This document shows positions 34,761 through 55,696 of a stretch of 59,547 nucleotides of DNA, piece after piece. The DNA is taken from contig JACPWF010000034.1 in assembly GCA_016197155.1 (NCBI GenBank), forward strand, positions 1-59,547. Direction: 5' to 3'. Under the pieces are notes generated by a model that saw only the letters and a program-made list of their open reading frames with translations, did not search any database and was not told the DNA's origin. A program made the position numbers and the translations under genes. Numbering within the stretch: position 1 is the first letter of the stretch; each line of letters begins with the position of its first letter. This stretch comes from Candidatus Omnitrophota bacterium (GTDB lineage Bacteria; Omnitrophota; Gorgyraeia; 2-02-FULL-51-18).

Positions 34761-35105
34761 GTGCCAGAGTTTAAAAAGAGACTCTTTTTCTATCAAACTT
34801 TAAATGGTAAAAGGCCATTTGAGGAGTGGTTTTCCGGCTTCAAAGACAAAAGAACTTATGCGTTACTCGCGGCAAAACTTGACCGTTTGGAACGCTATGG
34901 ACATACGGGTCGGTACAGATCTGTACAAGACGGCATTTATGAGTTAAAAATCGATCATGGGCCTGGGTATCGGGTTTATTTTGCTGAGCAGAGGAGTGCG
35001 GCTATTCTTCTTCTTGTGGGAGGAGATAAAAGCACTCAGCATCGCGATATTGAAAAGGCCGTTGAATATTGGAAGGATTATAAGGAGCGGGTGAATGAAA
35101 CTTAA
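34761..35105 (+). CDS. RelE/ParE-superfamily toxin (HigB-like addiction module killer protein)
   Basis: GKRPFEEWF...AKLDRLERYGHTGRYRSVQDGIYELKIDHGPGYRVYF...LLLVGGDKSTQHRDIEKA matches the addiction-module killer family pattern. Confidence 0.8.
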   Translation: MPEFKKRLFFYQTLNGKRPFEEWFSGFKDKRTYALLAAKLDRLERYGHTGRYRSVQDGIYELKIDHGPGYRVYFAEQRSAAILLLVGGDKSTQHRDIEKAVEYWKDYKERVNET

Positions 35106-35406
35106 AGCCTATCATGAGAGTCTCATCGAAGCCTTGAAAGACCCTAAGCAGGCGGCCGAATATTTAAATGTCGCCCTCGAAGAAGGGGACCCAAAAATGT
35201 TTTTGGTGGCTCTCAGGAATGTTGCAGAAGCTTGCGGCGGGATGTCCAAAGTTTCCCGGCGCACAAAACTCAACCGTGCCAACCTCTACAAAATCTTTTC
35301 CAAATCGGGTAACCCGGAAGTCCAAACACTCTCGCACATTCTTAAGACTTTTGGTTTGAGATTGGCCGTGGAAACGATGTCCTCACAAACTCTTAAGGCC
35401 GCATAA
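35095..35406 (+). CDS. HTH antitoxin (HigA-like addiction module antidote protein)
   Basis: YLNVALEEGDPKMFLVALRNVAEACGGMSKVSRRTKLNRANLYKIFSKSGNPEVQTL. The gene overlaps the toxin by 11 nt. Confidence 0.8.
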   Translation: MKLKAYHESLIEALKDPKQAAEYLNVALEEGDPKMFLVALRNVAEACGGMSKVSRRTKLNRANLYKIFSKSGNPEVQTLSHILKTFGLRLAVETMSSQTLKAA

Positions 35407-38311: not shown

Positions 38312-40747
38312 ATGATGCTTTATCTCGTAAGCCTGTCTTTCGCCAGCTTGTTTTCTTTGGTTCTCGGAGCCTTCGTTTTCTATAAGAATCCGGCGAGCCG
38401 TGTGAATCGAACGTGGGGGCTTTCCTGTTTGGGTTGTTGCGTTTGGAGTTTGTTTTTTGTATTGATGATCCGCGCCCACACTTACAAAAGCGCGCTTTTA
38501 TTTTCCAAAATCTGTAATTTGTCAGCGGCATATATGATCGTTCTCGTCGCCCATTTTTGCAAAGAAGTCGCGAGCTTCAATACAAAAAAAATGGGGTTGA
38601 TCAAATTGGGATATTTGAACGGCGTTTTATTGACACTCTCGGCATTTACAGACTATTTTTGTTCCGCAAGGCCAATTTTAAATTTTGACTATTTTGTATC
38701 CGCCAGACCCGTCTACCATCTTTTCACGGCTCACTTCTTCTTTTATATTTTTTATTCCGAGTACGTCCTGATTAGAGGGATGGCCTATCTGTCCGAGGAG
38801 CGAAAGAATCAGATCAAATACATCATTGTCGCTCTGACCAGCGGTTATGTTGGCGGCGGTTTGACGTTTCTCCCTGCCTATGGAATCCCGTTTCAGCCTG
38901 TTTCCGTGCATTTTGTGTGGGTATACGCCGCAATCATCTCGTACGCTATTTTGAAGTATCAATTAATGGACATTAAGGTAGTAATCAAAAAGACCCTTTT
39001 TTATTCTTTGCTGGTTTTTTTGGTTTCCGCACTCTATTTTATGGCGGTTTTTATGACTCACAAACTATTGATAAGTCCCTGGGATCTGCAAACTTGTTTG
39101 ATGAATGGTTTAAAGGGAGTGGAAATTTTATCTCAAATGATTACAAAAAATTTGTTTACTCTTACCAGTTTTCTATGCGGTGTGGCGTCTATGGGTCTGG
39201 CCGTCTTTGGACTGATTGTTGGCAGAACGAAGGCCCAAAGACTGTTTATGGTTTTTAACGCGGCGGTTGCCATATGGGGTTTTGGAAATTTCGTTGCAGG
39301 TTCTTCCGAGACTTCTGCTGGGGCTGTTATTGGATGGAGATCCGCTTATATAGGAGGGTTCTTTTTAAGTGCCATTTTTTGTCATTTGACGCAGGTATTT
39401 TTTGAGATCAGAAATAGAAAAATTCTCTTCATTGCGTATCTGCAGGCGATTGTGTTTTCCTCAGCCATGGTCTTTCACCCGCAAAGTCTTGTTTCTCAAA
39501 CCAGGCTGGCTTTTGGCGTGCACTATAACGTGATTACCGGAATGATGGCTACGGCGATAGCGATGTTTTTATTGATAGTAATTATCACCTATAAAAATCT
39601 TTTAGAGTATTTGCAAGTAGCTACAGAAGGTCGCCAGACGCAAGCGAAATATTTTATTTTTGGTTTTGCGTTCGGGTTTATCGGAGGAGCAACAACTTTA
39701 TTACCTCCGTTTGGTATTGATGTCATTTACCCGGCGGGAAATCTGGGTGTTGGTATTTATGCATTTATTTTAGTGTACGCAATGTTTCGGCATCAGATTT
39801 TGGATGTGAGGATTGTAATAAAAAGGACCATTTTTTATTCGCTCACGACGCTGTTTATTTCCATAGCTTATATTTTGGTCATATTTGTACTGCATAAGTT
39901 ATTCCTATTGGAAAATATCATTAAACCCACGGTACCAAACAGCATTATTTTAGTTGTGTTGATAATGGTATTTTTGAAACCGGTAGAAATATTTTTGCAT
40001 AGATTTTTGGATAAGAAATTTTTTAAAGGCACCATTACGGAAATTGCTAAGCAAAAACAGCTTTTGGAAACAGAGCTCGAACGCCGCGAGCGCCTGAAAA
40101 GCGTCGGCATCCTCGCCGCCGGCATGGCGCACGAGATCAAAAATCCCATCACGGCGATCAAGACCTTCGCGGAGTATCTGCCGGCGAAGTACGACGACCC
40201 CGGCTTTCGGGAAAAGTTTTCCAAGATCATCGTCGAGGAATCCGAGCGCGTCTCAAGGATCGTGCAGGACCTTCTTTTATTTTCAAAGCCGTCCGAACCC
40301 CGCCGCTGTCTCTGCGACGTGCACCGGCTTTTGCGCGACACGCTCGACCTTTTGAGCGGGGATATTCTGAAAAATAAAATAACGGTCGTGACCGATTTTG
40401 ATCCCGCCGCCGGGAAAAGCCATGTCGACGCGGGCCAGATGAAGCAGGCGTTTCTCAATCTTCTCATGAACGCGATAGAGGCCATGCCAAACGGCGGCGC
40501 CCTTAAGGTTTCTACTTCTCTGACCGCTGATTTGGGTCTGCTGATCACCGTCTCCGACACGGGCCCCGGCATTTCCTCCGACAAACTCCCGCATCTTTTC
40601 GACCCTTTCTTTACGGACAAGGACGAGGGGACGGGTCTGGGCCTGGCCATCACGCATGCCATCATCGAGAAAAACGGGGGAAAGATCACCGTTCAAAGCG
40701 CATTCGGAAAAGGCGCGTCCTTTCTCATCACGCTTCCTCCGGCCTGA
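38312..40747 (+). CDS. sensor histidine kinase with two tandem 7TM-type membrane modules
   Basis: 811 aa with about 14 TM helices. The junction motif occurs twice (YAILKYQLMDIKVVIKKTLFYS and YAMFRHQILDVRIVIKRTIFYS). H-box AAGMAHEIKNPIT, and HATPase N, G1 and G2 boxes. Confidence 0.85.
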   Translation: MMLYLVSLSFASLFSLVLGAFVFYKNPASRVNRTWGLSCLGCCVWSLFFVLMIRAHTYKSALLFSKICNLSAAYMIVLVAHFCKEVASFNTKKMGLIKLGYLNGVLLTLSAFTDYFCSARPILNFDYFVSARPVYHLFTAHFFFYIFYSEYVLIRGMAYLSEERKNQIKYIIVALTSGYVGGGLTFLPAYGIPFQPVSVHFVWVYAAIISYAILKYQLMDIKVVIKKTLFYSLLVFLVSALYFMAVFMTHKLLISPWDLQTCLMNGLKGVEILSQMITKNLFTLTSFLCGVASMGLAVFGLIVGRTKAQRLFMVFNAAVAIWGFGNFVAGSSETSAGAVIGWRSAYIGGFFLSAIFCHLTQVFFEIRNRKILFIAYLQAIVFSSAMVFHPQSLVSQTRLAFGVHYNVITGMMATAIAMFLLIVIITYKNLLEYLQVATEGRQTQAKYFIFGFAFGFIGGATTLLPPFGIDVIYPAGNLGVGIYAFILVYAMFRHQILDVRIVIKRTIFYSLTTLFISIAYILVIFVLHKLFLLENIIKPTVPNSIILVVLIMVFLKPVEIFLHRFLDKKFFKGTITEIAKQKQLLETELERRERLKSVGILAAGMAHEIKNPITAIKTFAEYLPAKYDDPGFREKFSKIIVEESERVSRIVQDLLLFSKPSEPRRCLCDVHRLLRDTLDLLSGDILKNKITVVTDFDPAAGKSHVDAGQMKQAFLNLLMNAIEAMPNGGALKVSTSLTADLGLLITVSDTGPGISSDKLPHLFDPFFTDKDEGTGLGLAITHAIIEKNGGKITVQSAFGKGASFLITLPPA

Positions 40748-42535: not shown

Positions 42536-42553
42536 TTGGTGTATACTCCTCCC

Positions 42554-43729: not shown

Positions 43730-44005
43730 TGGTTAAAAAAGCGCGGAGAGAAGCGTGGGTCGTCGCGAAGAGGCCCGGGGGCTCGAGGGGCCTACAAGAT
43801 ATGGTGGGCCAAGCGGCGCTCATTGCCATATACATGATTTGTTAGAACTGTTAAGTTTTCATCAAAAAACATTGACAGAGAATAAAGAATTAAGCTAGAC
43901 TCCTTCCTACGGGCAGACCCAAAAAAGAAGCCATTCAATAAGACCAAACGGAACATAAAGCGGGATAAAAGAACATAAGATTTTTTGTCCTAATCGGCGG
44001 TAAAA

Positions 44006-44257
44006 ATGAAGGTGATGGAAATGCAAATGAAAGAGGTTCATTCGAAGAACGGCGACAAGGTTTACACCGTGCCGGAGCTGGCGCGGTACCTGCGCATGCA
44101 GCCGCTCACGATTTACAAGCACGCCTCGAGCGGCAAACTGCCGGGTTTTAAGATCGGCTCCCACTGGCGTTTCAAGAAAAAAACCATCGACCGGTGGATT
44201 CACGAGCAGGAGCGGTCGCGCACTAAGACAAACGGAAATATTTTAACAAACCCATGA
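44006..44257 (+). CDS. excisionase-family helix-turn-helix DNA-binding protein
   Basis: YTVPELARYLRMQPLTIYKHASSGKLPGFKIGSHWRFKKKTIDRWI is the MerR/excisionase-type HTH pattern. The start is ambiguous among four in-frame ATGs. Confidence 0.7.
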   Translation: MKVMEMQMKEVHSKNGDKVYTVPELARYLRMQPLTIYKHASSGKLPGFKIGSHWRFKKKTIDRWIHEQERSRTKTNGNILTNP

Positions 44258-44301
44258 CCCGAGCGGGGAGGGTGGGTTTTTTGGTTTAGAAGGGTCGTTT
44301 A

Positions 44302-44358
44302 GTGTTTCATGATTTGTCTGGCAAGGTGGCCGTGGTAACAGGGGGATCCAAAATTTGA
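44302..44358 (+). pseudogene. 18-codon remnant of a short-chain dehydrogenase N-terminus
   Basis: VFHDLSGKVAVVTGGSKI*: the SDR Rossmann motif GKVAVVTGGS is cut off exactly where GC content drops. Confidence 0.5.
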
Positions 44359-44388
44359 AAAACCGGTTTTTATGAACATAACAACGTA

Positions 44389-45351
44389 ATGAATTACGAA
44401 AATAAGATATTACCTAGCTATCTTATAGAACCTTTGTTTGGAACTAGCAGAGACGGCAGTTCTCCATATGTCCCGACACTTGGAGAAGTAATAGTTGAGT
44501 GGTTAGACGCTATTAATTTTATTAAATATCCAACTCGCTGTTTGGCAGCTCTGAGCTTACTTTTTCATGGAATGACTTTTATATTATTAATAGTATATTT
44601 CGCAAAATTTATTTCAAAACCTAGCCTTATCTTCATGATAGCATCAATTTATTTCCTCGGAAATATTTATAATACGGTTTGGTATCATCGCTATTGTTCC
44701 CATGCGGCATATTCTTTTAAAAGAGCATGGTGCCCACAATTCTTTCTGTGGACGAACCCATTCTTTTTTAGAGAAGAGAGTTATGCCATACCTCATTTTA
44801 TCCATCATCAAAGAACCGAGAAACCCGGAGACCCGTATGGCCCACATTTGGGGTGGCTGGGTAGTTATTTAGCCTCAGAATCACAACAAAAAATGAATAC
44901 GAATATTACCAGAGATCAATACGATCTTTTAAAGGCTAAGGTAAAGCATATTGGCATAATACTTAATTCTTACCCTGAGTTCAAAAGGACTGGATCAGTA
45001 GAAAAAGTAGCGTTTTTTATTTTAAGAAGTATCTTTGCGCAGGTGCTCTATGTGTTAGTTTTTTACGCTCTTGGCGGAATCCCTTTCGTGCTTGCCTGGT
45101 ATGCAGCTGTCTTTATTATTTTCTTTCTGATTCGCGATTTCAATTGGCGTGGTCACGGAGGAAATTTCCGTAAAAAAAAGAAAGCGGGATGGGAATTCGA
45201 CACCAATAGTTATGCATTAAATCAACATTTTTATGGATATCTTGCATCAGAATGGCATGACAATCATCATAGATATCCAGCATCAGCCAATAATGGATTT
45301 TTGCCTGGCCAGACAGATGTTGCTTTTGCTTTTATAAAACTCTTGCACTGA
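44389..45351 (+). CDS. membrane fatty-acid desaturase (delta-9 acyl-CoA/acyl-lipid desaturase family, divergent)
   Basis: Three His boxes sit in the canonical order and spacing: HRYCSH, HFIHHQRTEKPGDP, EWHDNHHRYP. TM hairpins are present. The gene is AT-rich. Confidence 0.8.
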   Translation: MNYENKILPSYLIEPLFGTSRDGSSPYVPTLGEVIVEWLDAINFIKYPTRCLAALSLLFHGMTFILLIVYFAKFISKPSLIFMIASIYFLGNIYNTVWYHRYCSHAAYSFKRAWCPQFFLWTNPFFFREESYAIPHFIHHQRTEKPGDPYGPHLGWLGSYLASESQQKMNTNITRDQYDLLKAKVKHIGIILNSYPEFKRTGSVEKVAFFILRSIFAQVLYVLVFYALGGIPFVLAWYAAVFIIFFLIRDFNWRGHGGNFRKKKKAGWEFDTNSYALNQHFYGYLASEWHDNHHRYPASANNGFLPGQTDVAFAFIKLLH

Positions 45352-45534
45352 GTGGGGTTAGTTGAATCTATCATAGACGCCAAGCCTAAGTTTTGCATGG
45401 ATAGAAATTAAGTACGTTTAATCCGGAGAATAGTTATTCAGCTAAAATGGTAATAATACTGAAAATTCAGTTTTTGTGTAGGTTATGAGTCTAAGCCAAC
45501 TTTCTTGGCAGGCGTATTTATGGGCGGGGTTTTT

Positions 45535-46911
45535 ATGAAGGAGGATAGCGACGTGTTGGGATCTATAGATAGGCGGTCGGCCCCAAGGATTAGTTACCAT
45601 TCAAATATTAATGTTTGTAAGGATGTCCATGGCAACCTGCTTAATATATCGCCAAATGGATTAGCTTTTGTTACAAAAAATAGGCTCACGAAAGGCTTAA
45701 AAATAACTGTTGAAATTTCTCTTCCGCCAAGGAAACTAAATCTTGATTTGGAAATTAAATGGTGCAAGGAAAGCATCGATGAAAATTTCATTTGCGGAGC
45801 CGTGCTAGTTGCTTCAGAGGCAGAGATAAATCTTATACGAAAAGTTATGGTTATAACTGAGTTTCGAAGTGTGTTACGCAAGGTTAAAAATAAAGATCAT
45901 CGAAAATATATTTGTCGATTTGCCAAACACATCAAATTTTATATATCCGGACTTTTTGATTTAATAACAAACGTAGAGTCAAAAAATATATCGGAGAAAG
46001 ATATTCTGGGCAGGCTCGCTGAGCTTACCAATTCAATAGTTGTGGAAGGGGATCATCTGAGCAATCAGCTGTCAGATAGGCTTTTGATGAGTGCAATTAA
46101 AAAAGAATTTAGAATTTTGGTAAGCCCATGGGCATATAAGAGTTTGATTGTTAAAAGAAGTTATGACAAACCGCGCGGCTATCCCGGTGATTATAGGGTT
46201 ATGGAAGCGATTTATAACAAAAATATTATTTCGCCTAAAGCAGATAACCTCGGAAGATATTTTGATGAATATTTTCTGAACAATCCCTATGCGGAGGCGG
46301 TTCGAAATAGGAAGGATGTTTTAAGAGAGTATTTACGGACATTTATCTCTTCTAGAACGAATGTGCGAATATTGAATATAGCATGTGGTTCATGTCGCGA
46401 GGTTCGTGAACTTTTGTCCGATATTAATATGGTAACTAGCCTTGTGGGTAAAAAAGTGCTTATTTCCTGTCTCGATTGGGACGATGAGGCATTGGAATTT
46501 TCCAAGGCGGAACTTTGTAAAATAAACGCTTCTTCGGTTGAGTTAGAGTTCGTGAAGGAAGATATTTTTCAGATCTTTAAAAACAGGGATTTTTTTCAGA
46601 AACATGGTAAGTACGATTTGATATACAGTATTGGTTTAGCGGATTATTTGCCAGATCGTGTAATCAAAAAAATTGTAGAGAGCTCCTTTAACAACTTAAA
46701 TGTTAAAGGTACGCTTCTTTTAGCGCACAAAGATAAAGAAATCCGTTTTTCTCGTCTACCTCCGGAATGGTTTTGTGACTGGGAGTTCATTCTGAGAAAT
46801 CAAGAGGAGTTTATCAAGTTGGTTGCATCCGCGACTCGCGAAGCTTTTGACCTCTCTATTCAAAGGGATGCCACAGGGGACGTTTTTTTTACGGAAATAA
46901 TGAGATGCTAG
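45535..46911 (+). CDS. PilZ domain fused to class I SAM-dependent methyltransferase (PhcB-like?)
   Basis: PilZ motifs RRSAPR and NISPNGLAF. Methyltransferase motif I is ILNIACGSCRE, the acidic post-I motif is CLDWDDEA, and motif II is DLIYSIGLADYLPD. Upstream of these is KPRGYPGDYRVMEAIY. The start is uncertain: TTG 45505, ATG 45535, or GTG 45553 (preceded by AGGAGG). Confidence 0.75.
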   Translation: MKEDSDVLGSIDRRSAPRISYHSNINVCKDVHGNLLNISPNGLAFVTKNRLTKGLKITVEISLPPRKLNLDLEIKWCKESIDENFICGAVLVASEAEINLIRKVMVITEFRSVLRKVKNKDHRKYICRFAKHIKFYISGLFDLITNVESKNISEKDILGRLAELTNSIVVEGDHLSNQLSDRLLMSAIKKEFRILVSPWAYKSLIVKRSYDKPRGYPGDYRVMEAIYNKNIISPKADNLGRYFDEYFLNNPYAEAVRNRKDVLREYLRTFISSRTNVRILNIACGSCREVRELLSDINMVTSLVGKKVLISCLDWDDEALEFSKAELCKINASSVELEFVKEDIFQIFKNRDFFQKHGKYDLIYSIGLADYLPDRVIKKIVESSFNNLNVKGTLLLAHKDKEIRFSRLPPEWFCDWEFILRNQEEFIKLVASATREAFDLSIQRDATGDVFFTEIMRC

Positions 46912-46933
46912 ACCGTTTGAGATATTTTTTCCA

Positions 46934-49066
46934 ATGACTCCAATAGGCATTAGCGGGCTAATCAACTTTATTTCTAGTATTTTGTTAGGCATTTTTGTTT
47001 TATTTCGGAATCCCAAAGCGCCAACCAATAGGTCTTATTTTTATTTAAATTTTAGTGTTGCTTTTTTTAGCTTTTGGTATTTCTTTTGGCAACTTGCTTC
47101 CAACAAAGGTAGTGCGTTGCCACTTTTTAAACTCCTGACCTTGGGCATTATTTTCATCAACGTTACTTATTTGCATTTTGTTTTTAATTTTTTAAATATT
47201 TATCGGTCTAAAAAAACGTTCCTGTTAGTCTGTTATATAATAAACTTTTATTTCGTTTATTTAGATTTTTCTATGAATCTTTTCAGTGATTTACGACCAA
47301 AATATGGATTTGGCTATTGGCCTGTTGCCACACCTTACTTTAATATTTTTTTGATCTTTTGGTTGGTGCAATGTTTTTATGGTTTTTTCTTCTTACTAAG
47401 CCGTTTTAAAGACACCTCTGATACCTTGGAAAAAAAACAAATCAATTATTTTATAACGGCAGCTATTATAGGTTTTATAGGGGGATCAACGAATTGGCCC
47501 CTTTGGTATAACATACCGTTCCCACCTTATTTCAATATTCTTATAACTCTTTACATTGGCTTGGTAGCTTATGCCATTGTTAAGCACCAACTAATGGATA
47601 TCGAAGTTGCCATAAAGCGTACAGCTGTATTTGCGGGATTATTTGCGTTCGTATATGGCACCTTTACTGTGGTAACGATTATAGGCCAGGAATTTTTTAA
47701 ACGGTCACTTGGATGGAATCAGTGGACAGCATTAATTCCAACCGTTTTTGTAATTACTTTTGCCCTTCGCCCGCTAGAGATTTTCCTCACCAACGCCACG
47801 GAAAAATTTTTATTTCAAAAAAAGTACGACTACCGCGTGCTCCTCAAAACGTTCACCAACGAAATCCTCACCGTTTTGGATTTGAAAGAGTTGTGCGACC
47901 AGACCGTGGCGGAACTGGTGAAGATTTTGAAGCTCGAGGCGGCCAGCGTGATCCTGCTCGACAAAGACACGAAGCTGTACAAAATTATTTCAGCGATGGG
48001 CGTCAAAGATAAAAACATCGTTTTTAAAGACGAAGACGAGCTGATCGCGTTTCTCAAAACTTCCGGCCAGCCGATCGTGAAGGACAAGAGCGTCGATAAA
48101 ATCGAGGGCGACGGCGAGCTGAAAACCACATTTAAACAGCTGAATGCCCAGCTCTGCCTGCCGATCTCGCTCCACGATCAGCTGATCGGCGTCCTTTCTC
48201 TGGGCGCCAAAAAGTCCGGTGAGGAGTACACGCAGGAGGACATTGACATTTTGACGACGCTCGCGCGCACCGAGGCCATCGCCATCTCCAACGCCCGTCT
48301 CTTCGATGAGCTTTCCAAAACGCAGGCCGAGGCCGCCCAGCGCGAGAAAATGGCCGTGATCGGCACGCTCGCCGCGGGGATCAATCACGAGATCTGTAAT
48401 CCGCTGGGCATCGTTCGCGGCCAGTGCGAAATGTTCCTTTTGAATCTCCGCGACGGAATATTCGACAAAACCTCGAAAGACGAGCTTCTCAAAATATCCA
48501 GCGAGGTGATGAACAAGGTCATCAAGGAAACCGACCGCGCGACGGGCATCACCAAGCGCCTTTCCGGTTTCGCGAAACCCTCCAAGCGCAACGAGCTCGA
48601 GGAGGTTTTCGTAGAGAAAGAAGTGGGCGAGGTCCTAAACCTCATCGGCCACGATTTGAAACTGAGCAACATCGACGTGCAGACCGATTTTCCGCTTCAC
48701 TTCCCGCCGATCCTGGCTGACAAGAAACAGATCCAGGAGGTTCTCTTCAACATCATCCGCAACGCCGCGCAGGCGATGGACGAGTCGCGCCGCGGACGCA
48801 TCCTCGTCTCCGGCGTCTCCGAAAACGGCTCGACGATGATCCGGATCGCCGACAATGGCAGTGGCATCCCGCCGGACAAGATTAGTCAAATCTTTAACCC
48901 CTTCTACACGACCAAGGCCCCCGGCAAAGGCACGGGCCTGGGCCTTTTCATCGTGAAACAGGTGGTCGAGCGCAATAAAGGCGTCATCGGCGTCGAAAGC
49001 CAGGCCGGCGCCGGCACGACCTTCACTTTGAGTTTTCCGAAAGTTTCGGAACTGGCCGCGGCCTGA
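46934..49066 (+). CDS. 7TM-GAF sensor histidine kinase
   Basis: AT-rich 7TM N-terminus ending in YAIVKHQLMDIEVAIKR. GAF-like middle region (LCLPISLHDQLIGVLSLG). H-box AAGINHEICNPL, plus a HATPase domain. Confidence 0.85.
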   Translation: MTPIGISGLINFISSILLGIFVLFRNPKAPTNRSYFYLNFSVAFFSFWYFFWQLASNKGSALPLFKLLTLGIIFINVTYLHFVFNFLNIYRSKKTFLLVCYIINFYFVYLDFSMNLFSDLRPKYGFGYWPVATPYFNIFLIFWLVQCFYGFFFLLSRFKDTSDTLEKKQINYFITAAIIGFIGGSTNWPLWYNIPFPPYFNILITLYIGLVAYAIVKHQLMDIEVAIKRTAVFAGLFAFVYGTFTVVTIIGQEFFKRSLGWNQWTALIPTVFVITFALRPLEIFLTNATEKFLFQKKYDYRVLLKTFTNEILTVLDLKELCDQTVAELVKILKLEAASVILLDKDTKLYKIISAMGVKDKNIVFKDEDELIAFLKTSGQPIVKDKSVDKIEGDGELKTTFKQLNAQLCLPISLHDQLIGVLSLGAKKSGEEYTQEDIDILTTLARTEAIAISNARLFDELSKTQAEAAQREKMAVIGTLAAGINHEICNPLGIVRGQCEMFLLNLRDGIFDKTSKDELLKISSEVMNKVIKETDRATGITKRLSGFAKPSKRNELEEVFVEKEVGEVLNLIGHDLKLSNIDVQTDFPLHFPPILADKKQIQEVLFNIIRNAAQAMDESRRGRILVSGVSENGSTMIRIADNGSGIPPDKISQIFNPFYTTKAPGKGTGLGLFIVKQVVERNKGVIGVESQAGAGTTFTLSFPKVSELAAA

Positions 49067-49068
49067 CC

Positions 49069-49437
49069 ATGCCCAGAATTTTGGCGATCGACGATGAAGT
49101 GGAATTCACCGGGCTCATTCAAAGTTATTTCGGCGCGCGCGGGTACGAGGTGCTTGTGGCCAATCAGGGCGATGAGGGCCTGCGCCTGGCGAAAAAAGAA
49201 AAACCGGACGTGTGTCTCATTGACCTCAAGATGCCGGGCATCCACGGGGATGATGTCCTCCGGGAAATTCTTCTGGCCCAACCCAAGGCCAAGTGCATCA
49301 TGATCACGGCCTCCGAGGGAGAGGGCAAGACGCGCGAGCGGCTCATGGAGATGGGGGCGTACACCTGCTTCGACAAGCCGCTCACGTCGCTGAAGGATTT
49401 GGAGGCGAAGATTAAAGAGGCGATGAATAAAAAGTAA
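49069..49437 (+). CDS. single-domain CheY-like response regulator
   Basis: 122 aa. Acidic pocket ILAIDDE, phospho-acceptor context CLIDLKMPG, and T and K positions (MITAS, FDKP). Confidence 0.9.
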   Translation: MPRILAIDDEVEFTGLIQSYFGARGYEVLVANQGDEGLRLAKKEKPDVCLIDLKMPGIHGDDVLREILLAQPKAKCIMITASEGEGKTRERLMEMGAYTCFDKPLTSLKDLEAKIKEAMNKK

Positions 49438-49442
49438 AGGCG

Positions 49443-49822
49443 GGTATCAGGGAATCAGAGGATCAGGATGCAGGATACCAGGACATCAGAATATCAGGAA
49501 AAAGAAAAAATAAAGCCGGTCGCCGGTTTTGAAAAGCTCTGGGTGTGGCAAAAGGCGCACAAACTGATGCAGGAAATTCAAGGGTTTTAATGTAGCGAGG
49601 AAAGAAGCCGGTGAAACTCAAAACCATATTCGCACAATGCTCGGCAAAGAGTATCTGAACGCGAAGCGCTCTCAGGATTTGGTGGAGCAGTATGAAGAGG
49701 TGATTAGAGGGATTAATGGTTATGTTCGGTACGTTCGGGAAAAAAAGGCGCTGAGAGGTAGAATTACCTGATATCCTGAAACCTGATATCCTGCTTCCCG
49801 ATTTCCTGATCCCCTGATAACC
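49443..49822 (+). mobile_element. IVS-like element: about 57-nt imperfect inverted arms of ATCAGG-type repeats enclosing a decayed four-helix-bundle gene
   Basis: The left arm (49443-49498) and the reverse complement of the right arm (49766-49822) align over their whole length with a few mismatches and indels. The terminal ATATCAGG / CCTGATAT and GGTATCAGGG / CCCCTGATAACC segments pair. Confidence 0.6.
49510..49771 (+). pseudogene. four-helix-bundle protein (23S rRNA intervening-sequence protein / Avd-like family), internally deleted and frameshifted
   Basis: The N-terminal piece is FEKLWVWQKAHKLMQEIQGF*. The C-terminal piece ARKEAGETQNHIRTMLGKEYL...INGYVRYVREKK lies in another frame. The central helices are missing. 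Confidence 0.6.
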
Positions 49823-49845
49823 GAACTAACGCGGAAGAGGTTCTT

Positions 49846-50229
49846 ATGCGAAAACGCCCCAGGCTCCTTGTCGTCGACAACGAAATCGACATCTGCAATT
49901 TCGTGAAATCCTTTTTCCAGGTGAGAGGCTTTAAAGTGGTCACGGCCCTAAACGGCGACGAGGCGATGGAAAAATTGGCGGCCGAAAAACCGGACATCGT
50001 CATTTTGGACATCATGATGCGTACCGCCCGGGAAGGTTTGGATTACCTGCCGAAAATTAAAAAAGCCCTGCCCTCCGCGAAGGTCCTCATGATCACCGCC
50101 GTCGAAGACAACGAAGCGATTGACACCGCGAAAAAAATGGGCGCGGACGACTACATCACCAAGCCCCTCGTTCTCGAATATCTGGAGACGACCGTACTGG
50201 AAAAGATTAAAAGTCTGAGAACAAGTTAG
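49846..50229 (+). CDS. single-domain CheY-like response regulator
   Basis: 127 aa with LLVVDNE, IVILDIMM, MITAV and ITKP receiver landmarks. Confidence 0.9.
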   Translation: MRKRPRLLVVDNEIDICNFVKSFFQVRGFKVVTALNGDEAMEKLAAEKPDIVILDIMMRTAREGLDYLPKIKKALPSAKVLMITAVEDNEAIDTAKKMGADDYITKPLVLEYLETTVLEKIKSLRTS

Positions 50230-50230
50230 T

Positions 50231-50290
50231 AGCTGGAAGTTAGTAGTTAGAAGCAAAACCTAAATAGCTTCCAGCCACTAGCTTCTAACC
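50231..50290 (+). other. long imperfect stem-loop built from degenerate 9-mers
   Basis: GCTGGAAG and GTTAGAAGC on the left are complementary to CTTCCAGC and GCTTCTAAC on the right. No U-tract follows. Confidence 0.4.
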
Positions 50291-50361
50291 GCTTCTCAGA
50301 GGAGATTGACATTTATACTAAAATCGACTATCAAGAAGCCCTCTTAAACGCCTCAAAGGGA

Positions 50362-51534
50362 ATGATCCGAGTCAAGGACCCGGTCGTTCTTCTTAAAATC
50401 ATCACCCGCTTTATCGACCGGCAGATGGGCGTGACGCACGTCGCGGTGATTCTCTACGACAAAAAGCGCGGTGCCTACACGCTCATCGACAGCAAAGGCG
50501 AGGGCGGCGCCAAGATTCCCATCGGCTACGTGAAAGTCCCCGCGGACAATCCGATCGTCAATTTTTTTAAATCCTCCCACAACGGGGCCTTCGCGCGCCG
50601 CGAGGCGCTGGTCTACAAAGAGATCGACCCCATCCAAAATTTTGAGATCCTCGTGAACAAAAAAGAGGGCCGCGCGATCCATTACGAGGACATTAAAAAA
50701 CAGATGAATTATCTGCGCGCGGCGGTGTGCGTGCCGAGTTTTTACAAAAAGGAACTGATCGGCATTCTCATTTTGGGCGAAAAGCTTTCGGGCGACGTTT
50801 ACCACGAGGAGGAGATCAGCCTCTTCGTGACGCTGGCCAACGACGTGGCGATGGCCGTGAAAAACGCCGAGTTGATCCACGATTTGAGAACGGCGTACGA
50901 GAAAGAGCACAGCCTTTTTATCAATACGTCCATTGCCCTCGCGACCGCGATCGACGCGCGCGACCGCTACACGCACGGCCACTCCGAGCGCGTCTCGCAC
51001 TACAGCCTTGTCATCGTGAAGGAGCTCATTGACTCGGGAAAAATGCAGTTTGACCGCGAATTCATGGAAACGGTCCAGCTCTCGGGGCTTTTGCATGATG
51101 TGGGAAAGATCGGGATTCGGGATGAGATTTTAAATAAGCCCGCCAAACTCACCGGCGAAGAATTTGAAATCATGAAAACCCACGTGAAGATCGGCGCCAG
51201 CATCGTCAAACCCGTGAAGGGCCTGAAGCACCTGGAGGACGGCATCCTGTATCATCACGAACGCTTTGACGGGGGAGGCTATCCGTTTGGGCTGAAGGGG
51301 AAGGACATTCCCATTATCGGGAGGATCGTGAGCGTGGCCGACACTTACGACACCATCGTGACGGCGCGTTCCTATAAAGAGGCCGAGGCCGCGGAGGCCG
51401 CTTTTGAAGAAATGAAACGCTCGTCCGGCGCTCAGCTCGACCCCGAAATCGTCGAGGCCTTTCACCGCGCGTACAAAAAAGGAAAAATCACGCGCCGCGA
51501 GTACCTCAGCTTCGATTTTTCAAAAATACACTAA
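50362..51534 (+). CDS. GAF-like domain + HD-GYP c-di-GMP phosphodiesterase
   Basis: HGHSERVSHYS...LLHDVGKIGI...HHERFDGGGYPFGL...VADTYDT. The reading frame stays open upstream to 50251, so the N-terminus is uncertain. Confidence 0.85.
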   Translation: MIRVKDPVVLLKIITRFIDRQMGVTHVAVILYDKKRGAYTLIDSKGEGGAKIPIGYVKVPADNPIVNFFKSSHNGAFARREALVYKEIDPIQNFEILVNKKEGRAIHYEDIKKQMNYLRAAVCVPSFYKKELIGILILGEKLSGDVYHEEEISLFVTLANDVAMAVKNAELIHDLRTAYEKEHSLFINTSIALATAIDARDRYTHGHSERVSHYSLVIVKELIDSGKMQFDREFMETVQLSGLLHDVGKIGIRDEILNKPAKLTGEEFEIMKTHVKIGASIVKPVKGLKHLEDGILYHHERFDGGGYPFGLKGKDIPIIGRIVSVADTYDTIVTARSYKEAEAAEAAFEEMKRSSGAQLDPEIVEAFHRAYKKGKITRREYLSFDFSKIH

Positions 51535-53122
51535 ACGCCGTCCCTTTTCCCGATCTGCTTTCCACCTCGATCTTCCCGCCGTGTTCCTTAATGATGCCGT
51601 GCACAATCGAAAGTCCCAGGCCCGTTCCGGATTCCTTCGTCGTGAAAAAGGGGTCAAAGATGTGGGGGAGCTGGTCTTCCGCGATCCCACAGCCGGTGTC
51701 GGAGACAGTGGTCAGTAGACAGGAGTCAGCAGTCAGGGACGTGGAAATCGTGAGCGTGCCGCCGCCCGGCATGGCCTGGATGCCGTTCAGGAAAAGATTC
51801 AGAAACGCCTGTTTCAACTGATTTTTATCCAGCGCCAATTCCGCATCCGCGCCGTAATTTTTGACGACGTTGATCCGATGCTCCAGCAGATTTTTATTCA
51901 GAAGGGCCAGCGTGTCATCGATGATCGGGCAAAGATGCTGACGCCGGAGCTCGAGCTCCTTGGGTTTTGAAAAATCAAGAAGCTGTTGGACGATATTGTT
52001 CACCCGGTCCACCTCATCAACCACAATTCTCTTAAACTTTTCTCTAAACTCCGGATCACCGTGTTTATAGGGCAAATATTCCGCGAAGGTTTTGATGGAC
52101 GTGAGAGGATTTTTGATCTCATGGGCCATCCCCGCGGCGAGGGTCGCCACGGATTTCATCCGGTCCTGTTTCTGGGCCTCGATTTTAAAGAGCTCGTTTT
52201 CGCGCAGGATTTTTTCAGGATCCATTTTGAAAAAATATTTGTCGAGCGTGTTTTGAATCCTCAGGCGCAAAGGATTGAAAACCAGCGCGATGAAGAGAGA
52301 GGCCATGAGCGCCACGACGATTGACCGGTAGCCGAGATAGGATTGGAAAAGGCGTTCGCTGATTAAAATAATGAAGAGATAAATAGCCGTCATGATGAAA
52401 ATAAGCGAGGAATAAATAAAGCCTCTTCGGACGATGATGTCGATGTCCAGCAACCTATGGCGCACGATGGCATAGGTGATCAGCGAAGAAAAGGCGCCTA
52501 CGAAGACGTAGCCAAACGGATAAATAGGCACATTAAACTTTGGAAGGTAATCCATGGCGGCGATGACAAAAATGCCGATGGACAGGGCGTAGTATTTGAA
52601 ACGCTGATAGTTTTCGTCCTGTAGTCTGCTTTTGGCGATAGCCGAGGCTTTAACCAAAACGTGGATAATGCGGCTGGCCAAGGCAAAAGTAAACAGCACG
52701 TAAGCCAGCATCAGCGGGCCGCCCCGAGGGTAGTAGCCCCAGTAAAACCGCTCTATTTTTGGCATGTAAAGGGGCGACGTGTATAGGCTTATCAGACTGA
52801 AAATACAAAAAAGAACGCTGAAGCAAGCCATGCGGACGTCGAATTTTTCTTTCAAATCGCCCAAGGCTTCGAGCGTGAAAAAATAGATGGTTGGCGATAA
52901 AAGAACAGCCATGGCGTGACCAAGTCTGAGAAAATTTAAAATTTGATTGAAATCACTTAGCGAATAAGCAAGCCCATAGGAGAAAAGCCATCCAAAGCTC
53001 CAAAGTGTAACCAGAAAACAAAGCTGATTTTTTTTCTTCGTCGGGTTGGACAGGAGGACAAATATTCCCAAAGCGATGTTGTAAATCGAAACAATAAAAT
53101 TGGGAATAGAGTAGGGGTTCAT
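51506..53122 (-). CDS. 7TM sensor histidine kinase
   Basis: 538 aa. The 7TM N-terminus ends in YAIVRHRLLDIDIIVRR. H-box AAGMAHEIKNPLT, plus a HATPase domain. ATGA overlap with the upstream kinase. Confidence 0.85.
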   Translation of the reverse strand: MNPYSIPNFIVSIYNIALGIFVLLSNPTKKKNQLCFLVTLWSFGWLFSYGLAYSLSDFNQILNFLRLGHAMAVLLSPTIYFFTLEALGDLKEKFDVRMACFSVLFCIFSLISLYTSPLYMPKIERFYWGYYPRGGPLMLAYVLFTFALASRIIHVLVKASAIAKSRLQDENYQRFKYYALSIGIFVIAAMDYLPKFNVPIYPFGYVFVGAFSSLITYAIVRHRLLDIDIIVRRGFIYSSLIFIMTAIYLFIILISERLFQSYLGYRSIVVALMASLFIALVFNPLRLRIQNTLDKYFFKMDPEKILRENELFKIEAQKQDRMKSVATLAAGMAHEIKNPLTSIKTFAEYLPYKHGDPEFREKFKRIVVDEVDRVNNIVQQLLDFSKPKELELRRQHLCPIIDDTLALLNKNLLEHRINVVKNYGADAELALDKNQLKQAFLNLFLNGIQAMPGGGTLTISTSLTADSCLLTTVSDTGCGIAEDQLPHIFDPFFTTKESGTGLGLSIVHGIIKEHGGKIEVESRSGKGTAFSVFLKNRS

Positions 53123-54735
53123 GGAAATGACAGAGCGAATGTGGTGCCCTGGCCGGGTTGGCTGATGGCTGATATTTTCCCCCCATGCTCCTCAATGATC
53201 CCGTGAACAATCGACAGCCCCAGCCCCGTCCCGCCCTGCTTTTTGCTGAAGAACGGGTCGAAAATGTGGGGCAGGTCTTCGGGGGCGATACCGGTGCCGG
53301 TGTCAGAAACAGTAGTCAGTAGACAGGAGTCAGAATTCAGGGAGGTCGAGACCGTGAGCGTGCCGCCGCCCGGCATGGCGTCGAGGCTATTCAGAAATAA
53401 ATTTAAAAAAACCTGCTTGAGCTGTTTTTTGTCGCCGGAGATTTTGTGATCGGAGGCGTCCATCTTTTTTTCCACGCGAATATTCTTTTTTACAAATTCG
53501 CCGGAGAGTAGATCGAGAGTCTCGTTTAGAATCTGCTCGATGAGAACCGGTTCGAGGCGCGGGGGAGTCGGCTTGGAGAATTCGAGCAGTTGCCGGACAA
53601 TGGAGTCAATTTTATTCACCTCAGCGGTCACGATTTGATCAAACTTATTTATAAACCCGGGGTCGCCCGACCTCGCGGGTAGCTGTTCCGTGAAAGTTTT
53701 GATGGCCGTGAGAGGATTCTTGATCTCATGGGCCATCCCCGTGGCGAGGGTCGCCACGGATTTCATCCGGTCCTGTTTCTGCGCCTCGATTTTAAAGAGC
53801 TCGTTTTCGCGCAGGATTTTTTCAGGATCCATTTTGAAAAAATATTTGTCGAGCGTGTTTTGAATTCTCAGGCGCAAAGGATTGAAAACCAGAGCGATGA
53901 ACAAGGAGGCTGTAAGAGCTATTAGAATCGATCGGTAGCCGAAGTATGACCGAAAAATTTGTTCGCTAATAAGTATTATTGCAAGATAAATGAAGGTGAT
54001 TATGAAGATGAGAACAGAATAAATGAAGCTACGGCGAATGATGATGTCAATGTCAAACAGTCGGTGTTTGACGATGGCATAGGTGGTCGTAGAGGCAAAA
54101 ACGGTTATAAAAATAAAGCCCATTGGGTAATATTCGATCCCATAGACGGGTAGCCAGTCGGTGGATGCGATCAGGGCTATCATGAATGACCAGAACACAT
54201 AGCGAATTCGGTTTTTTTCTTCGGGAGGAGTTTCTGGGTTTTGAATGGTTTTTCTTAGAAGAATGAAACAATAAATGAAAATGCTAAAAAAATAAGCCAA
54301 ATACAAATTGTTCAGGTAACCCGCTTTTGTTTGATACCCCCAATAGAGTTTTTGCAAGCCCACCAAAAACCCCTCCATCTCGTATAGAGAAAATACAAAA
54401 AAGATTCCAATGAGATATTGAATAAAAATTTTTCCGGAGCTATTTTTGGTTGAGAGCAAGCGATTGGTAAAATGGAAAAAAGTAATGGGAATAAATATAA
54501 CGCCTGTATAGAGAAATTTATAAATGATTTTTGCCGTGGCCTCATCATTTGTGGAGTACAACATGAAATATCCGAAGAGCCAAACGAAAACCGAGAGCGT
54601 AAGGAAGAAAAAAGTCCTATTGACGGCTGAGGCGCTGTTTTTGAACAAGACAAAAATGCCGACAGAGATCATGACTAATGAGACAACAAGCGGAGGGTAG
54701 GAGTATATTGTCGGGGAGAGGTGAGGGAACAACAT
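53119..54735 (-). CDS. 7TM sensor histidine kinase (tandem paralog)
   Basis: 538 aa. The AT-rich 7TM N-terminus ends in YAIVKHRLFDIDIIIRR. H-box ATGMAHEIKNPLT, plus a HATPase domain. Confidence 0.85.
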   Translation of the reverse strand: MLFPHLSPTIYSYPPLVVSLVMISVGIFVLFKNSASAVNRTFFFLTLSVFVWLFGYFMLYSTNDEATAKIIYKFLYTGVIFIPITFFHFTNRLLSTKNSSGKIFIQYLIGIFFVFSLYEMEGFLVGLQKLYWGYQTKAGYLNNLYLAYFFSIFIYCFILLRKTIQNPETPPEEKNRIRYVFWSFMIALIASTDWLPVYGIEYYPMGFIFITVFASTTTYAIVKHRLFDIDIIIRRSFIYSVLIFIITFIYLAIILISEQIFRSYFGYRSILIALTASLFIALVFNPLRLRIQNTLDKYFFKMDPEKILRENELFKIEAQKQDRMKSVATLATGMAHEIKNPLTAIKTFTEQLPARSGDPGFINKFDQIVTAEVNKIDSIVRQLLEFSKPTPPRLEPVLIEQILNETLDLLSGEFVKKNIRVEKKMDASDHKISGDKKQLKQVFLNLFLNSLDAMPGGGTLTVSTSLNSDSCLLTTVSDTGTGIAPEDLPHIFDPFFSKKQGGTGLGLSIVHGIIEEHGGKISAISQPGQGTTFALSFP

Positions 54736-54779
54736 TTATTTAAGCCAAATATGGATTCAAGAAAATGCCTTTGTTAAAG

Positions 54780-55151
54780 CTACTTCAAAACATGAGCGAT
54801 GGATTTGAGGAGGTGTTTGCTGTCAAACGGCTTCGCGATGTAGTCGGAGGCGCCGTTGCGGATGGCTTCCTGGGCCATCTCGACGCTTTGGTAGCCGGTG
54901 ACGATGATGACGGGAAGTTTGGGTTTTCTCTTTTTGATTGTCTTTAAAATTTCCATGCCGTGGAGTTTGGGCATCTTGATGTCGAGTAGCATCGCGTCGG
55001 GCGAGAAGGTCTTCAAAAGCTCGAGCGCCTCGACGCCGTTGGTCACCAGGCGCAGGTCGTAGTCATCCGAGAGGACGAGCTTGAAGGACTCGCGCACGCC
55101 CTCTTCGTCGTCGCAAATCAGGATAGTGGGTCTTTTAGATGGAAGCGCCAT
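54780..55151 (-). CDS. single-domain CheY-like response regulator
   Basis: 123 aa with ILICDDEE, MLLDIKMPK, IIVTGY and IAKP. Confidence 0.9.
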   Translation of the reverse strand: MALPSKRPTILICDDEEGVRESFKLVLSDDYDLRLVTNGVEALELLKTFSPDAMLLDIKMPKLHGMEILKTIKKRKPKLPVIIVTGYQSVEMAQEAIRNGASDYIAKPFDSKHLLKSIAHVLK

Positions 55152-55160
55152 GAGACCTCC

Positions 55161-55696
55161 TTATAATGAAGACGGTGTCAAAACCGACAGGCACCAGGAC
55201 TCGCTGTTCAGCGGGTTGCGGAAATGGTGGGGCAGGGAGGCCTGGAAATAAAGGCTCGCGCCGTGCTTCAGGACCTGCCTCTCATTTCCCAGAGTCAGCT
55301 CGATCGTTCCTTTTAGAATGTAAATAAACCGCTCGGCGCCGCCGGAAAATTCCTCGGTCTCGGTGTGGCCTTTTCCCTTTAATTTCAGAAGGATCGGCGT
55401 CATCTTTTTCTGGAGGACTCCGGTGGTGAGCAACTGGGCGACCGCGCCGCTCGAATGCGAAAACGTTTCGAGTTTTCGCCGCGCCGCTTTTTCCTTCATT
55501 TCCTCAATGCGGGAAAGGACGTCCTTGTAGAGGTCGGGCAGGTGGATGCCGAGCGCGGCGGCGATCCGCGTGTGCGAATCGAGCGTGCCGGTCATCCGGC
55601 CGTTTTCGATGCGGCTCCGGTTTTCTCCGCCACCTGGACAAGGGTAAGGGCCCGCTCTTTCCGCAGGCGTTTGATGCGTTCTCCGAGGCCTTTCAT
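55161..55696 (-). pseudogene. XRE-HTH + cupin transcriptional regulator, disrupted in the HTH
   Basis: The N-terminal piece MKGLGERIKRLRKERALTLVQVAEKTGAASKTAG* (55696-55592) breaks where the recognition helix should be. The downstream frame continues RIENGRMTGTL...cupin (intact ORF 55161-55595). Confidence 0.55.

Follow-up and report, generated by a model that had tools for sequence, protein, structure and literature searches.

A candidate exchangeable synthase-and-receptor cassette with a PilZ::PhcB-like methyltransferase in Candidatus Omnitrophota

The phcBSRQ system of Ralstonia and Cupriavidus takes its signal from PhcB, which synthesises 3-OH fatty-acid methyl esters (PMC8578825), and PhcBSR is conserved in the Burkholderiaceae, with Cupriavidus among its carriers (PMC10788593). 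Here we examine a gene cluster in a 59,547-nucleotide (nt) contig of a Candidatus (Ca.) Omnitrophota bacterium (JACPWF010000034.1; the whole stretch is termed the window below), in which a PhcB-related methyltransferase, dependent on S-adenosylmethionine (SAM) and bearing a PilZ domain, is encoded immediately upstream of a kinase with a seven-transmembrane (7TM) sensor, two stand-alone receivers (REC1 and REC2) and a GAF-HD-GYP protein. An earlier interpretation, made from the DNA letters alone (the sequence-only reading), had joined these genes to an adjacent fatty-acid desaturase gene as a phc-like signal cassette linked to cyclic di-GMP (c-di-GMP). The PhcB-family assignment of the methyltransferase and the gene order in that proposal hold in the analysis reported here; the likeness to phc does not extend to the sensor or the regulators, and the desaturase is not a conserved member of the cassette.

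The locus resembles phcBSRQ in having a homologous synthase of nearly equal length (458 amino acids (aa) here against 464-468 aa, PMC8578825), placed directly upstream of a membrane histidine kinase with a 30% identical core and of two receiver-containing genes. It differs in its canonical PilZ N-terminus, that of PhcB being not detectably PilZ; in its HisKA_7TM and GAF sensor, bare receivers and HD-GYP output, where phc uses PhcS, PhcR/PhcQ and the pathway of PhcA, a LysR-type master regulator; and in that the synthase can be replaced by quite unlike sets of lipid enzymes.

In the diffusible signal factor (DSF) system, rpfF-rpfC-rpfG of Xanthomonas, a fatty-acid signal acts through a multi-pass membrane kinase and phosphotransfer on an HD-GYP c-di-GMP phosphodiesterase (PMC3749722, PMC5391125). 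Lipid signals that feed c-di-GMP through HD-GYP proteins therefore have a known precedent, and the suggestion of the sequence-only reading that such coupling was undescribed is too broad. The two systems differ in their synthases, RpfF being a crotonase and the enzyme here a methyltransferase, and in their outputs: RpfG is a receiver fused to HD-GYP, whereas in the present cassette GAF is the domain joined to HD-GYP and the receivers are proteins of their own. To our knowledge no c-di-GMP receptor domain is known on RpfF, and we know of no allelic swapping of sensor and synthase in the DSF system.

Exchange by recombination of variable signal genes together with the sensor part of a kinase is familiar from the staphylococcal agr groups and the comQXP pherotypes of Bacillus, which are peptide systems of Firmicutes. 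The present locus shares with them a hypervariable stretch of signal genes and sensor, conserved flanks, a separate history of that stretch and signs of recombination; it differs in that the variable genes encode lipid-biosynthesis enzymes and not peptides, and in that its specificity groups are putative. A fourth point of comparison is DesK-DesR-des of Bacillus subtilis, in which, as here, a membrane desaturase gene adjoins the gene of a multi-pass sensor kinase. There regulation acts on the desaturase, and what the sensor measures is the thickness of the bilayer; the system has no methyltransferase, no c-di-GMP components and no sensor polymorphism.

Using comparisons of related loci, codon-position composition, profile searches and structure models, we conclude with moderate confidence that the cluster represents a single allele of a polymorphic synthase-and-receptor cassette. 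The conserved locus that houses the cassette combines two-component and c-di-GMP genes, and the bacteria that carry it are most likely Ca. Omnitrophota. The alternatives are weighed where the pertinent evidence is given.

Enzyme genes and kinase sensor vary together

The gene order HTH_17, PilZ-methyltransferase, 7TM-GAF kinase, REC, REC, GAF-HD-GYP recurs in L002/L003, L006/L007, L132 and L144/L145, and the contigs on which it recurs are many and mostly annotated as Ca. Omnitrophota. The HTH_17 gene that opens the cassette was overlooked in the sequence-only reading. In the closest loci (L133, L134, L135 and L139) HTH_17, REC1, REC2 and the HD-GYP protein are 70-86% identical to the window copies; taken singly, HTH_17 is 61-76% identical to its equivalents in L132, L133, L134, L006 and L002, REC1 and REC2 are 72-75% and 67-72% identical to those of L132, L133 and L134, and the HD-GYP protein is 73-80% identical to its orthologues. 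The conservation extends to the surroundings. The opposite strand downstream of many loci, like that of the window, encodes one or two 7TM kinases together with a receiver and a cupin protein (after the HD-GYP gene in L133, L134, L135, L141, L144 and L149), and on the upstream side RecQ and an 800-aa 7TM kinase come before several of the loci; a homologue of the corresponding window kinase, HK811, lies upstream of HTH_17 in L134/L137, L136, L139, L144 and L146. The expected synteny is thus found for the order from methyltransferase through kinase and both receivers to HD-GYP, the desaturase being only an occasional participant.

What varies between loci is the block from HTH_17 to the kinase gene, plus the sensor domain of the kinase. 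The block consists of a PilZ-methyltransferase alone in L002, L006, L132 and L144, of a PilZ-less methyltransferase alone in L154, and of a desaturase and a PilZ-methyltransferase in the window. Elsewhere it comprises a PilZ::desaturase fusion with a ketoacyl synthase (KS) and an ICMT-type methyltransferase (L134, L130); a ketoreductase (KR), KS, acyl carrier protein (ACP), further KS and FAD oxidase (L140, L149), to which L133 and L161 add a PilZ-less PhcB-like methyltransferase; ACP, fatty-acyl reductase and AMP-ligase (L135); ACP and thioesterase (L141, L146); KS, ACP and a small unassigned open reading frame (ORF) with an N-terminus similar to the thioesterase of L141/L146 (L150); an acyl-ACP-reductase-like protein with or without FadL (L139, L147); KR, acyl reductase and GMC oxidoreductase (L157); or a KR-DH protein resembling polyketide synthases (PKS) (L142). 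All the alternative blocks are fatty-acid or polyketide chemistry. The KS, KR and ACP set that accompanies the PhcB-like methyltransferase in L133 and L161 would yield 3-hydroxyacyl-ACP, an indirect hint at a 3-hydroxy fatty-acid methyl ester as product; no enoyl-CoA hydratase domain of the RpfF crotonase type occurs in the cassette genes or in any allele examined. A further arrangement is seen in the complete genome CP070807.1 (L005:1217-4414), where a REC::ketoacyl-synthase fusion, an ACP and a second PhcB-like methyltransferase (452 aa, apparently PilZ-less) precede a 7TM-GAF kinase, a receiver and a PilZ-methyltransferase, which places two PhcB-like enzymes in one cluster of one genome.

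Genes for KS, KR, ACP and PKS-like multidomain proteins in several alleles would also suit specialised-metabolite clusters making bioactive lipids, such as antimicrobials or host-directed effectors, with the kinase sensing the product or an external cue for production or self-protection; accessory metabolite clusters typically show low G+C content at third codon positions (GC3, described below) and are patchily distributed. The modules are tiny, however, comprising one to seven genes, and in the smallest allele a PhcB-like methyltransferase stands alone; input domains of PilZ or REC type sit on the enzymes, the conserved partner genes all encode signalling proteins, and the nearest relative of the synthase to have been characterised produces an autoinducer (PMC8578825). 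We consider this explanation improbable.

The behaviour of the sensor was followed by aligning the window kinase with 102 relatives and splitting the identities by region. Most of the relatives are 65-89% identical to it in the linker, 60-70% in the GAF domain and 70-82% in the kinase region, but only 17-31% in residues 1-215; a smaller set shows the reverse, with sensors 41-59% identical and more distant cores. The window sensor is 41-66% identical to those of most kinases that adjoin PhcB-like methyltransferases. When sensors were clustered, a PhcB-like methyltransferase lay directly upstream in 7 of 7 non-redundant loci with the window type (cluster 1) and in 1 of 13 with other types (Fisher p = 1e-4, a value that is only indicative, as loci that are related to one another were treated as independent). 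Within cluster 1 the kinase cores are 49-76% identical to that of the window, and several of the 13 loci with other sensors have cores 75-76% identical to it. Sensor type follows the enzyme set, then, and not the kinase core; synthase genes and sensor domain form one exchangeable, polymorphic unit, which the sequence-only reading did not recognise. Such co-variation is the pattern expected of a cognate synthase-receptor pair and argues against a generic membrane sensor, and the joint exchange of synthase genes and sensor is the strongest evidence for their functional pairing. In Ralstonia, strains that use different signal types are reported to differ jointly in PhcB and PhcS. The sequence features of a pherotype-like locus are present: a variable block of synthesis genes and sensor, conserved flanks, and linkage of sensor type to synthase type.

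These observations bear on a second alternative, in which the locus performs membrane-lipid surveillance in the style of DesK-DesR-des, the 7TM domain monitoring a membrane property or lipid of the same cell while the adjacent enzymes remodel that lipid, for homeostasis and not communication. A membrane desaturase gene does adjoin that of the multi-pass kinase here, just as des adjoins desK-desR in Bacillus; the variable modules are all lipid enzymes, and the window allele has no dedicated exporter. A fluidity sensor, on the other hand, needs no enzyme-specific sensor domain, yet here the sensor co-varies with the enzymes while identity over the remainder of the kinase is still 70-82%. Products such as methyl esters, fatty aldehydes or alcohols and acids freed by thioesterases would typically be diffusible and not bilayer lipids, and FadL-type outer-membrane lipid channels lie in or near some alleles. 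On this evidence lipid surveillance appears unlikely, although it is the leading alternative.

Pairing of the methyltransferase with 7TM proteins is repeated within a single locus in L215:2525-10917, which encodes in tandem REC, PilZ-methyltransferase, REC-PilZ-methyltransferase, a 7TM-only protein, REC-PilZ-methyltransferase and a 7TM-GAF kinase, that is, two further methyltransferase-7TM pairs, with a receiver fused straight to the synthase. A separate array of sensor-like genes follows the allele of L150 (L150:13862-19475), where five tandem genes for products of 256-265 aa and a sixth ORF cut by the end of the locus are found; the two members scanned are HisKA_7TM proteins without a kinase domain, and the array could supply receptors that act on their own or hold sensor modules in reserve.

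A compositional island ends inside the kinase gene

The variable unit of the window is also set apart by composition. GC3 is 0.31 in the desaturase gene, 0.36 in the methyltransferase gene and 0.33 in the sensor region, against 0.69-0.77 for HTH_17 (itself 0.73 and host-like), the remaining kinase, the receivers and HD-GYP, and about 0.7-0.8 for housekeeping genes of the window. The low-GC3 island runs from 44389 to about 47822, so that its 3' end falls within the kinase gene. The maximum-likelihood change point is codon 296 (nt 47822; support interval 295-298), with GC3 of 0.34 before it and 0.78 after it; it lies about 80 codons inside the region conserved at the protein level, and the reading frame is intact across the junction. 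A switch inside conserved sequence points to homologous recombination, since that is where a crossover is expected. Module and sensor GC3 fell below that of the backbone in 6 of 6 loci measured (the window and five others, from other samples), which suggests that the low-GC3 block circulates among lineages.

Abrupt in-gene jumps in GC3 can also be produced by chimeric metagenome contigs, and a chance low-GC fragment beside a kinase would need no functional link to it. A Logan assembly of SRR12113391, possibly from the same sample, reproduces window positions 43263-48125 at 100% identity, including both junctions, which makes a chimera unlikely; the intact frame and the same gene order and GC3 drop in 5 of 5 other loci measured speak against it as well. 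We regard a chance or chimeric origin as very improbable indeed.

Two other accounts of the island were considered and rejected. A site-specific mobile element with HTH_17 as its excisionase, taken as the main mechanism, conflicts with a 3' boundary that lies in frame within a conserved gene and with an HTH_17 gene that has host-like composition and is 61-76% conserved, and there was no integrase among the ORFs examined beside the cassette. Nor is low GC3 a by-product of coding for membrane proteins, the genes for soluble methyltransferase, KS, KR and ACP proteins being equally low.

Compositional differences within kinase genes occur elsewhere in the window. In its three other HisKA_7TM kinases (38312-40747, 51506-53122 and 53119-54735) sensor GC3 is below core GC3; in HK811 it is about 0.36-0.60 over the first 600 codons and 0.64-0.84 over the last 200. 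Exchange of sensor domains may be general in this genome.

The methyltransferase, its partners and the layout of the window

The coordinates of the features discussed are assembled in Table 1. All six ORFs described in the sequence-only reading were recovered at their given positions, are co-directional, and, the desaturase excepted, have domain contents assigned with Pfam and NCBIfam. Their tight packing is exact for the spacings between methyltransferase and kinase (22 nt) and between kinase and REC1 (2 nt); it does not extend to the intergenic gaps of 183 nt between desaturase and methyltransferase, 408 nt between REC1 and REC2 and 132 nt between REC2 and HD-GYP.

Table 1. Features of the window in and around the cassette
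Feature	Position	Strand	Basis
HK811, 811-aa histidine kinase, upstream backbone	38312..40747	+	Pfam HisKA_7TM + HisKA + HATPase
HTH_17 small DNA-binding protein, conserved 5' border of variable module	44006..44257	+	PF12728, E 8.7e-15
Low-GC3 tract (exchanged segment): desaturase, methyltransferase, sensor domain and about 80 conserved codons	44389..47822		GC3
Membrane di-iron fatty-acid desaturase, delta-9 (SCD/DesC) type, putative, 320 aa	44389..45351	+	three His boxes
PilZ::PhcB-like SAM-dependent methyltransferase, putative signal synthase, 458 aa	45535..46911	+	Pfam PilZ, hhalign
HisKA_7TM + GAF + HisKA + HATPase kinase	46934..49066	+	Pfam
Kinase residues 1-215, variable HisKA_7TM sensor domain	46934..47578	+	alignment to homologues
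Kinase residues 216-710, conserved: two more membrane helices, GAF, phospho-acceptor domain, ATPase domain	47579..49066	+	Pfam
REC1, stand-alone receiver, 122 aa	49069..49437	+	PF00072, E 8e-22
Two short ORFs, apparent remnants of a 23S_rRNA_IVP gene, probably non-functional	49468..49771	+	sequence reading
REC2, stand-alone receiver, 127 aa	49846..50229	+	PF00072, E 2e-23
GAF-HD-GYP protein, putative c-di-GMP phosphodiesterase, cassette output	50362..51534	+	HD_5 E 8e-30, HD, GAF
Downstream backbone: HisKA_7TM kinases (51506-53122, 53119-54735), receiver (54780-55151), cupin protein (55161-55595)	51506..55595	-	

The start of the methyltransferase gene, ATG at 45535, is that chosen by gene callers (P0001), the longest frame being a 468-aa ORF from TTG at 45505. 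Its PilZ domain (residues 23-93) scores 27.3 bits against a Pfam cutoff of 22.5 and is followed by a class I methyltransferase with weak Pfam matches. More than 500 relatives were found, most of them of about 450 aa and with the same PilZ-methyltransferase architecture; among the matches listed, the organism names given by the sources are all Ca. Omnitrophota, and one homologue (P0057) carries the KEGG name phcB (JGI). In an alignment of 19 family members the PilZ motifs R14xxxR18 and NxSxxG42 (consensus NxSExG) are invariant (19/19), as are the SAM-binding residues. An AlphaFold2 model (mean predicted local distance difference test score, pLDDT, 88.7) places a beta-barrel at residues 24-92, with six strands and pLDDT > 80, a helical domain at 95-272 and a Rossmann fold at 276-457. 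Motifs and barrel identify the N-terminal domain as a canonical PilZ c-di-GMP receptor domain, predicted to bind c-di-GMP, in agreement with its earlier assignment.

For comparison with PhcB, a degenerate pattern derived from a published phcR H-box primer (PMC8578825, Table S6) was used to find orthologues, and located at least 120 loci. Among those listed, six from Burkholderiales (Cupriavidus gilardii, Pseudorhodoferax, Massilia, Ramlibacter and a Comamonadaceae genome) have a methyltransferase relative adjoining a membrane kinase and a receiver-kinase protein, in the order phcB-phcS-phcR; no Ralstonia appeared among the phcR-pattern matches listed, and a pattern from the published phcB quantitative PCR primer had no match in genome contigs. 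Aligned with hhalign to these six orthologues, which were recognised by gene order and not through a curated Ralstonia sequence, the 19-member family profile gave 99.7% probability and E 1e-26 over 317 columns, which run from residue 124 to 454 of the family and from 124 to 462 of the orthologues and take in the helical domain as well as the Rossmann fold. Searches with tblastn against the orthologue loci gave E-values of 1e-16 to 4e-22, and the motifs KPxGYxGDY, RNRxD and GLxDYL are common to both groups. The enzyme thus groups with PhcB and not with an unrelated class of methyltransferase, protein and rRNA methyltransferases included, as had been proposed.

Structure comparison was less specific. 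A sequence search of the Protein Data Bank (PDB) with the methyltransferase gave no match, and Foldseek against the PDB found no close characterised structure for the model; its best match was 3ocj, an uncharacterised 'possible exported protein' of Bordetella parapertussis, followed by small-molecule methyltransferases. Perhaps 3ocj is a solved member of the PhcB-like family, so far unlinked to PhcB. In the PLSDB plasmid collection tblastn retrieved only distant class I methyltransferases (25-29% identity), mostly from Rhizobium and none annotated as PhcB.

An enzyme of this kind might instead be a CheR-like protein methyltransferase under c-di-GMP control, modifying the kinase or the receivers in place of a lipid. 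PhcB orthologues do match CheR weakly (PF01739, E 0.003), one distant plasmid homologue is annotated as CheR, and the PilZ protein MapZ acts on CheR in Pseudomonas, as cited within 10.1101/814665. Similarity to PhcB is nevertheless far above that to any CheR profile, and the Foldseek matches already named point away from CheR; the cassette has no CheB-type demethylase, and the same position elsewhere is held by KS, ACP, KR, reductase and thioesterase genes, whose products are incapable of such protein modification. A CheR-like role therefore seems highly improbable.

The position of the gene agrees with its PhcB-like character. It lies directly upstream of the sensor kinase gene not only in the window but in L002, L004, L006, L132, L144, L154, L215 and Cupriavidus, and its proposed placement immediately 5' of a membrane kinase and two receiver genes, as in phcBSRQ, is confirmed, with the order conserved to HD-GYP. 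Related genes were also seen in other settings. On a plasmid labelled Roseateles (NZ_CP084754.1, UNVERIFIED_ORG; L008:3418-7829) a 348-aa PilZ-less PhcB-like methyltransferase is encoded between a GGDEF-EAL gene and the gene of a sensor diguanylate cyclase, and related genes are common on Rhizobium plasmids; the link of the methyltransferase family to c-di-GMP genes may thus extend to Proteobacteria. In L117, L056, L127, L089 and L125 (Pseudorhodoferax, Massilia, Ramlibacter and the Comamonadaceae genome) a phcB-like gene is found no more than 8 kb from a PhcR-type H-box, and the phc system may be wider among Burkholderiales than the range of Burkholderiaceae, Cupriavidus and Polaromonas quoted in PMC10788593.

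The desaturase proved to be an accessory of the window allele and not the conserved cassette member it had been taken for: L002/L003, L006/L007, L132 and L144/L145 all lack it, as do most alleles, and a desaturase recurs only as the PilZ::desaturase fusion of a different allele. The product of 44389-45351 has no Pfam match even at E-values up to 1, scores 25 bits against the NCBIfam DesA model (cutoff 400) and gave nothing meaningful in a PDB sequence search. It possesses hydrophobic segments, the His boxes HRYCSH, HFIHH and HDNHH, and H256; H100, H105, H136, H139, H140, H256, H290, H293 and H294 are kept in 109-120 of 120 homologues. These homologues are at most 62% identical to it; several are named delta-9 desaturases by JGI and three carry PF00487. 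As no family profile matches, the protein belongs to a divergent branch and its delta-9-type assignment is putative.

Downstream of the sensor, catalytic motifs are intact: the H-box of the kinase and the acceptor residues of the receivers are visible in the translations (Asp, Thr and Lys in REC1), as are LLHDVGK and GGGYP in the HD-GYP protein. The regulators are not of PhcR or PhcQ type but bare receivers of 122 and 127 aa; PhcR has 368-374 aa, with a receiver plus a kinase-like domain, and PhcQ 336-337 aa (PMC8578825). In Cupriavidus, PhcR reads as REC + HisKA + HATPase. Regulatory domains on enzymes are found in other alleles as well, with PilZ fused to a desaturase, REC to a KS, or REC and PilZ to a methyltransferase, which suggests that these cassettes are generally built with their first enzyme under post-translational control. 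A PilZ or REC domain on the synthase may be novel; our literature search returned no description of a PilZ-PhcB fusion, of this cassette or of a HisKA_7TM ligand.

Besides the indirect choice of PhcB references and the relatedness of the loci behind the association test, several results weigh against a direct transfer of phc function to this locus. Identity to PhcB is about 22-27%, at which level its substrate cannot be confidently carried over. The N-terminal domains, equal in length, gave a probability of 0.1% when profiles of the first 118 residues were compared, and PhcB orthologues have no Pfam PilZ match at E-values up to 1; with both tests negative, a degenerate PilZ domain in PhcB is not supported at the level of sequence. 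BLASTP of the window kinase against PhcS aligned only the kinase core (30% identity) and not the membrane parts, and PhcS matches neither HisKA_7TM nor GAF; the two sensor domains are unrelated. The HD-GYP protein carries a GAF domain and not a receiver, which leaves its control by the kinase presumptive. Finally, the sequence gives no indication of release of the molecule from the cell; in some alleles, transporters of the FadL type hint at traffic across the envelope.

Some features around the cassette touch on its backbone more than on its variable part. The ORF pair between the receiver genes resembles two halves of a 23S_rRNA_IVP gene (four-helix bundle, bAvd-like), a family call that is itself a reading of the sequence; L133 has an intact 23S_rRNA_IVP gene between REC2 and HD-GYP, and L134 has a GIY-YIG gene and an extra receiver in the same region. 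The backbone around the receivers seems to tolerate small insertions. Three AAA_14/DUF4143 ATPase genes surround HK811 (37046-38182, 41231-42385 and 42536-43729), two of them inserted between HK811 and HTH_17, an interval that in related loci is empty or holds a PDDEXK_3 gene. Just upstream of RecQ, two small overlapping ORFs of low GC3 (34761-35406; 0.39 and 0.53) look like a pair of RelE/HigB-type toxin and HTH antitoxin. No RNA family exceeded the Rfam threshold anywhere in the window, and so no c-di-GMP or SAM riboswitch is indicated; promoter and terminator scans gave too small an excess over shuffled sequence to delimit operons.

Proposed mechanism and implications

We propose that the PilZ::PhcB-like methyltransferase would make a small fatty-acid-derived molecule, most plausibly a methyl ester, with help in this allele from the delta-9-type desaturase. 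The molecule would partition into the membrane and be detected by the 7TM sensor of the kinase encoded 22 nt downstream; the kinase would presumably phosphorylate one or both stand-alone receivers, and these would act on the GAF-HD-GYP phosphodiesterase to alter c-di-GMP, with HTH_17 as a possible transcriptional arm. Through the PilZ domain c-di-GMP would then feed back on signal synthesis, and the molecule may serve as a signal between cells. Specificity of synthase and sensor would reside on one contiguous segment. Homologous recombination would move this segment from lineage to lineage, one crossover falling within HTH_17 or the spacer downstream of it and the other within the conserved membrane-linker region of the kinase.

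If this proposal is correct, PhcB-type signalling would extend beyond one family of Betaproteobacteria that live in association with plants and include a phylum for which metagenomes are the sole source, and a lipid-derived class of ligand would be suggested for the widespread HisKA_7TM domain, for which none is known. With PilZ on the synthase and a phosphodiesterase as output, second messenger and cell-cell signalling would be joined in a closed circuit of which we found no published description, and the locus would be a lipid counterpart of the agr and com pherotypes. Matched synthase-sensor pairs on a nearly identical chassis are suited to the study of lipid recognition and to the building of orthogonal signalling channels. 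The locus also carries a caution, that sharp in-gene breaks of composition in metagenome contigs can be real recombination joints and not chimeras. More broadly, and tentatively, Ca. Omnitrophota, which are uncultured and very small-celled, may carry a hypervariable lipid 'language' locus, in which interchangeable blocks of pathway genes and 7TM sensors, spread by recombination, would be mounted on a conserved chassis, with signal synthesis gated post-translationally by c-di-GMP or phosphorylation through PilZ or REC domains on the first enzyme.

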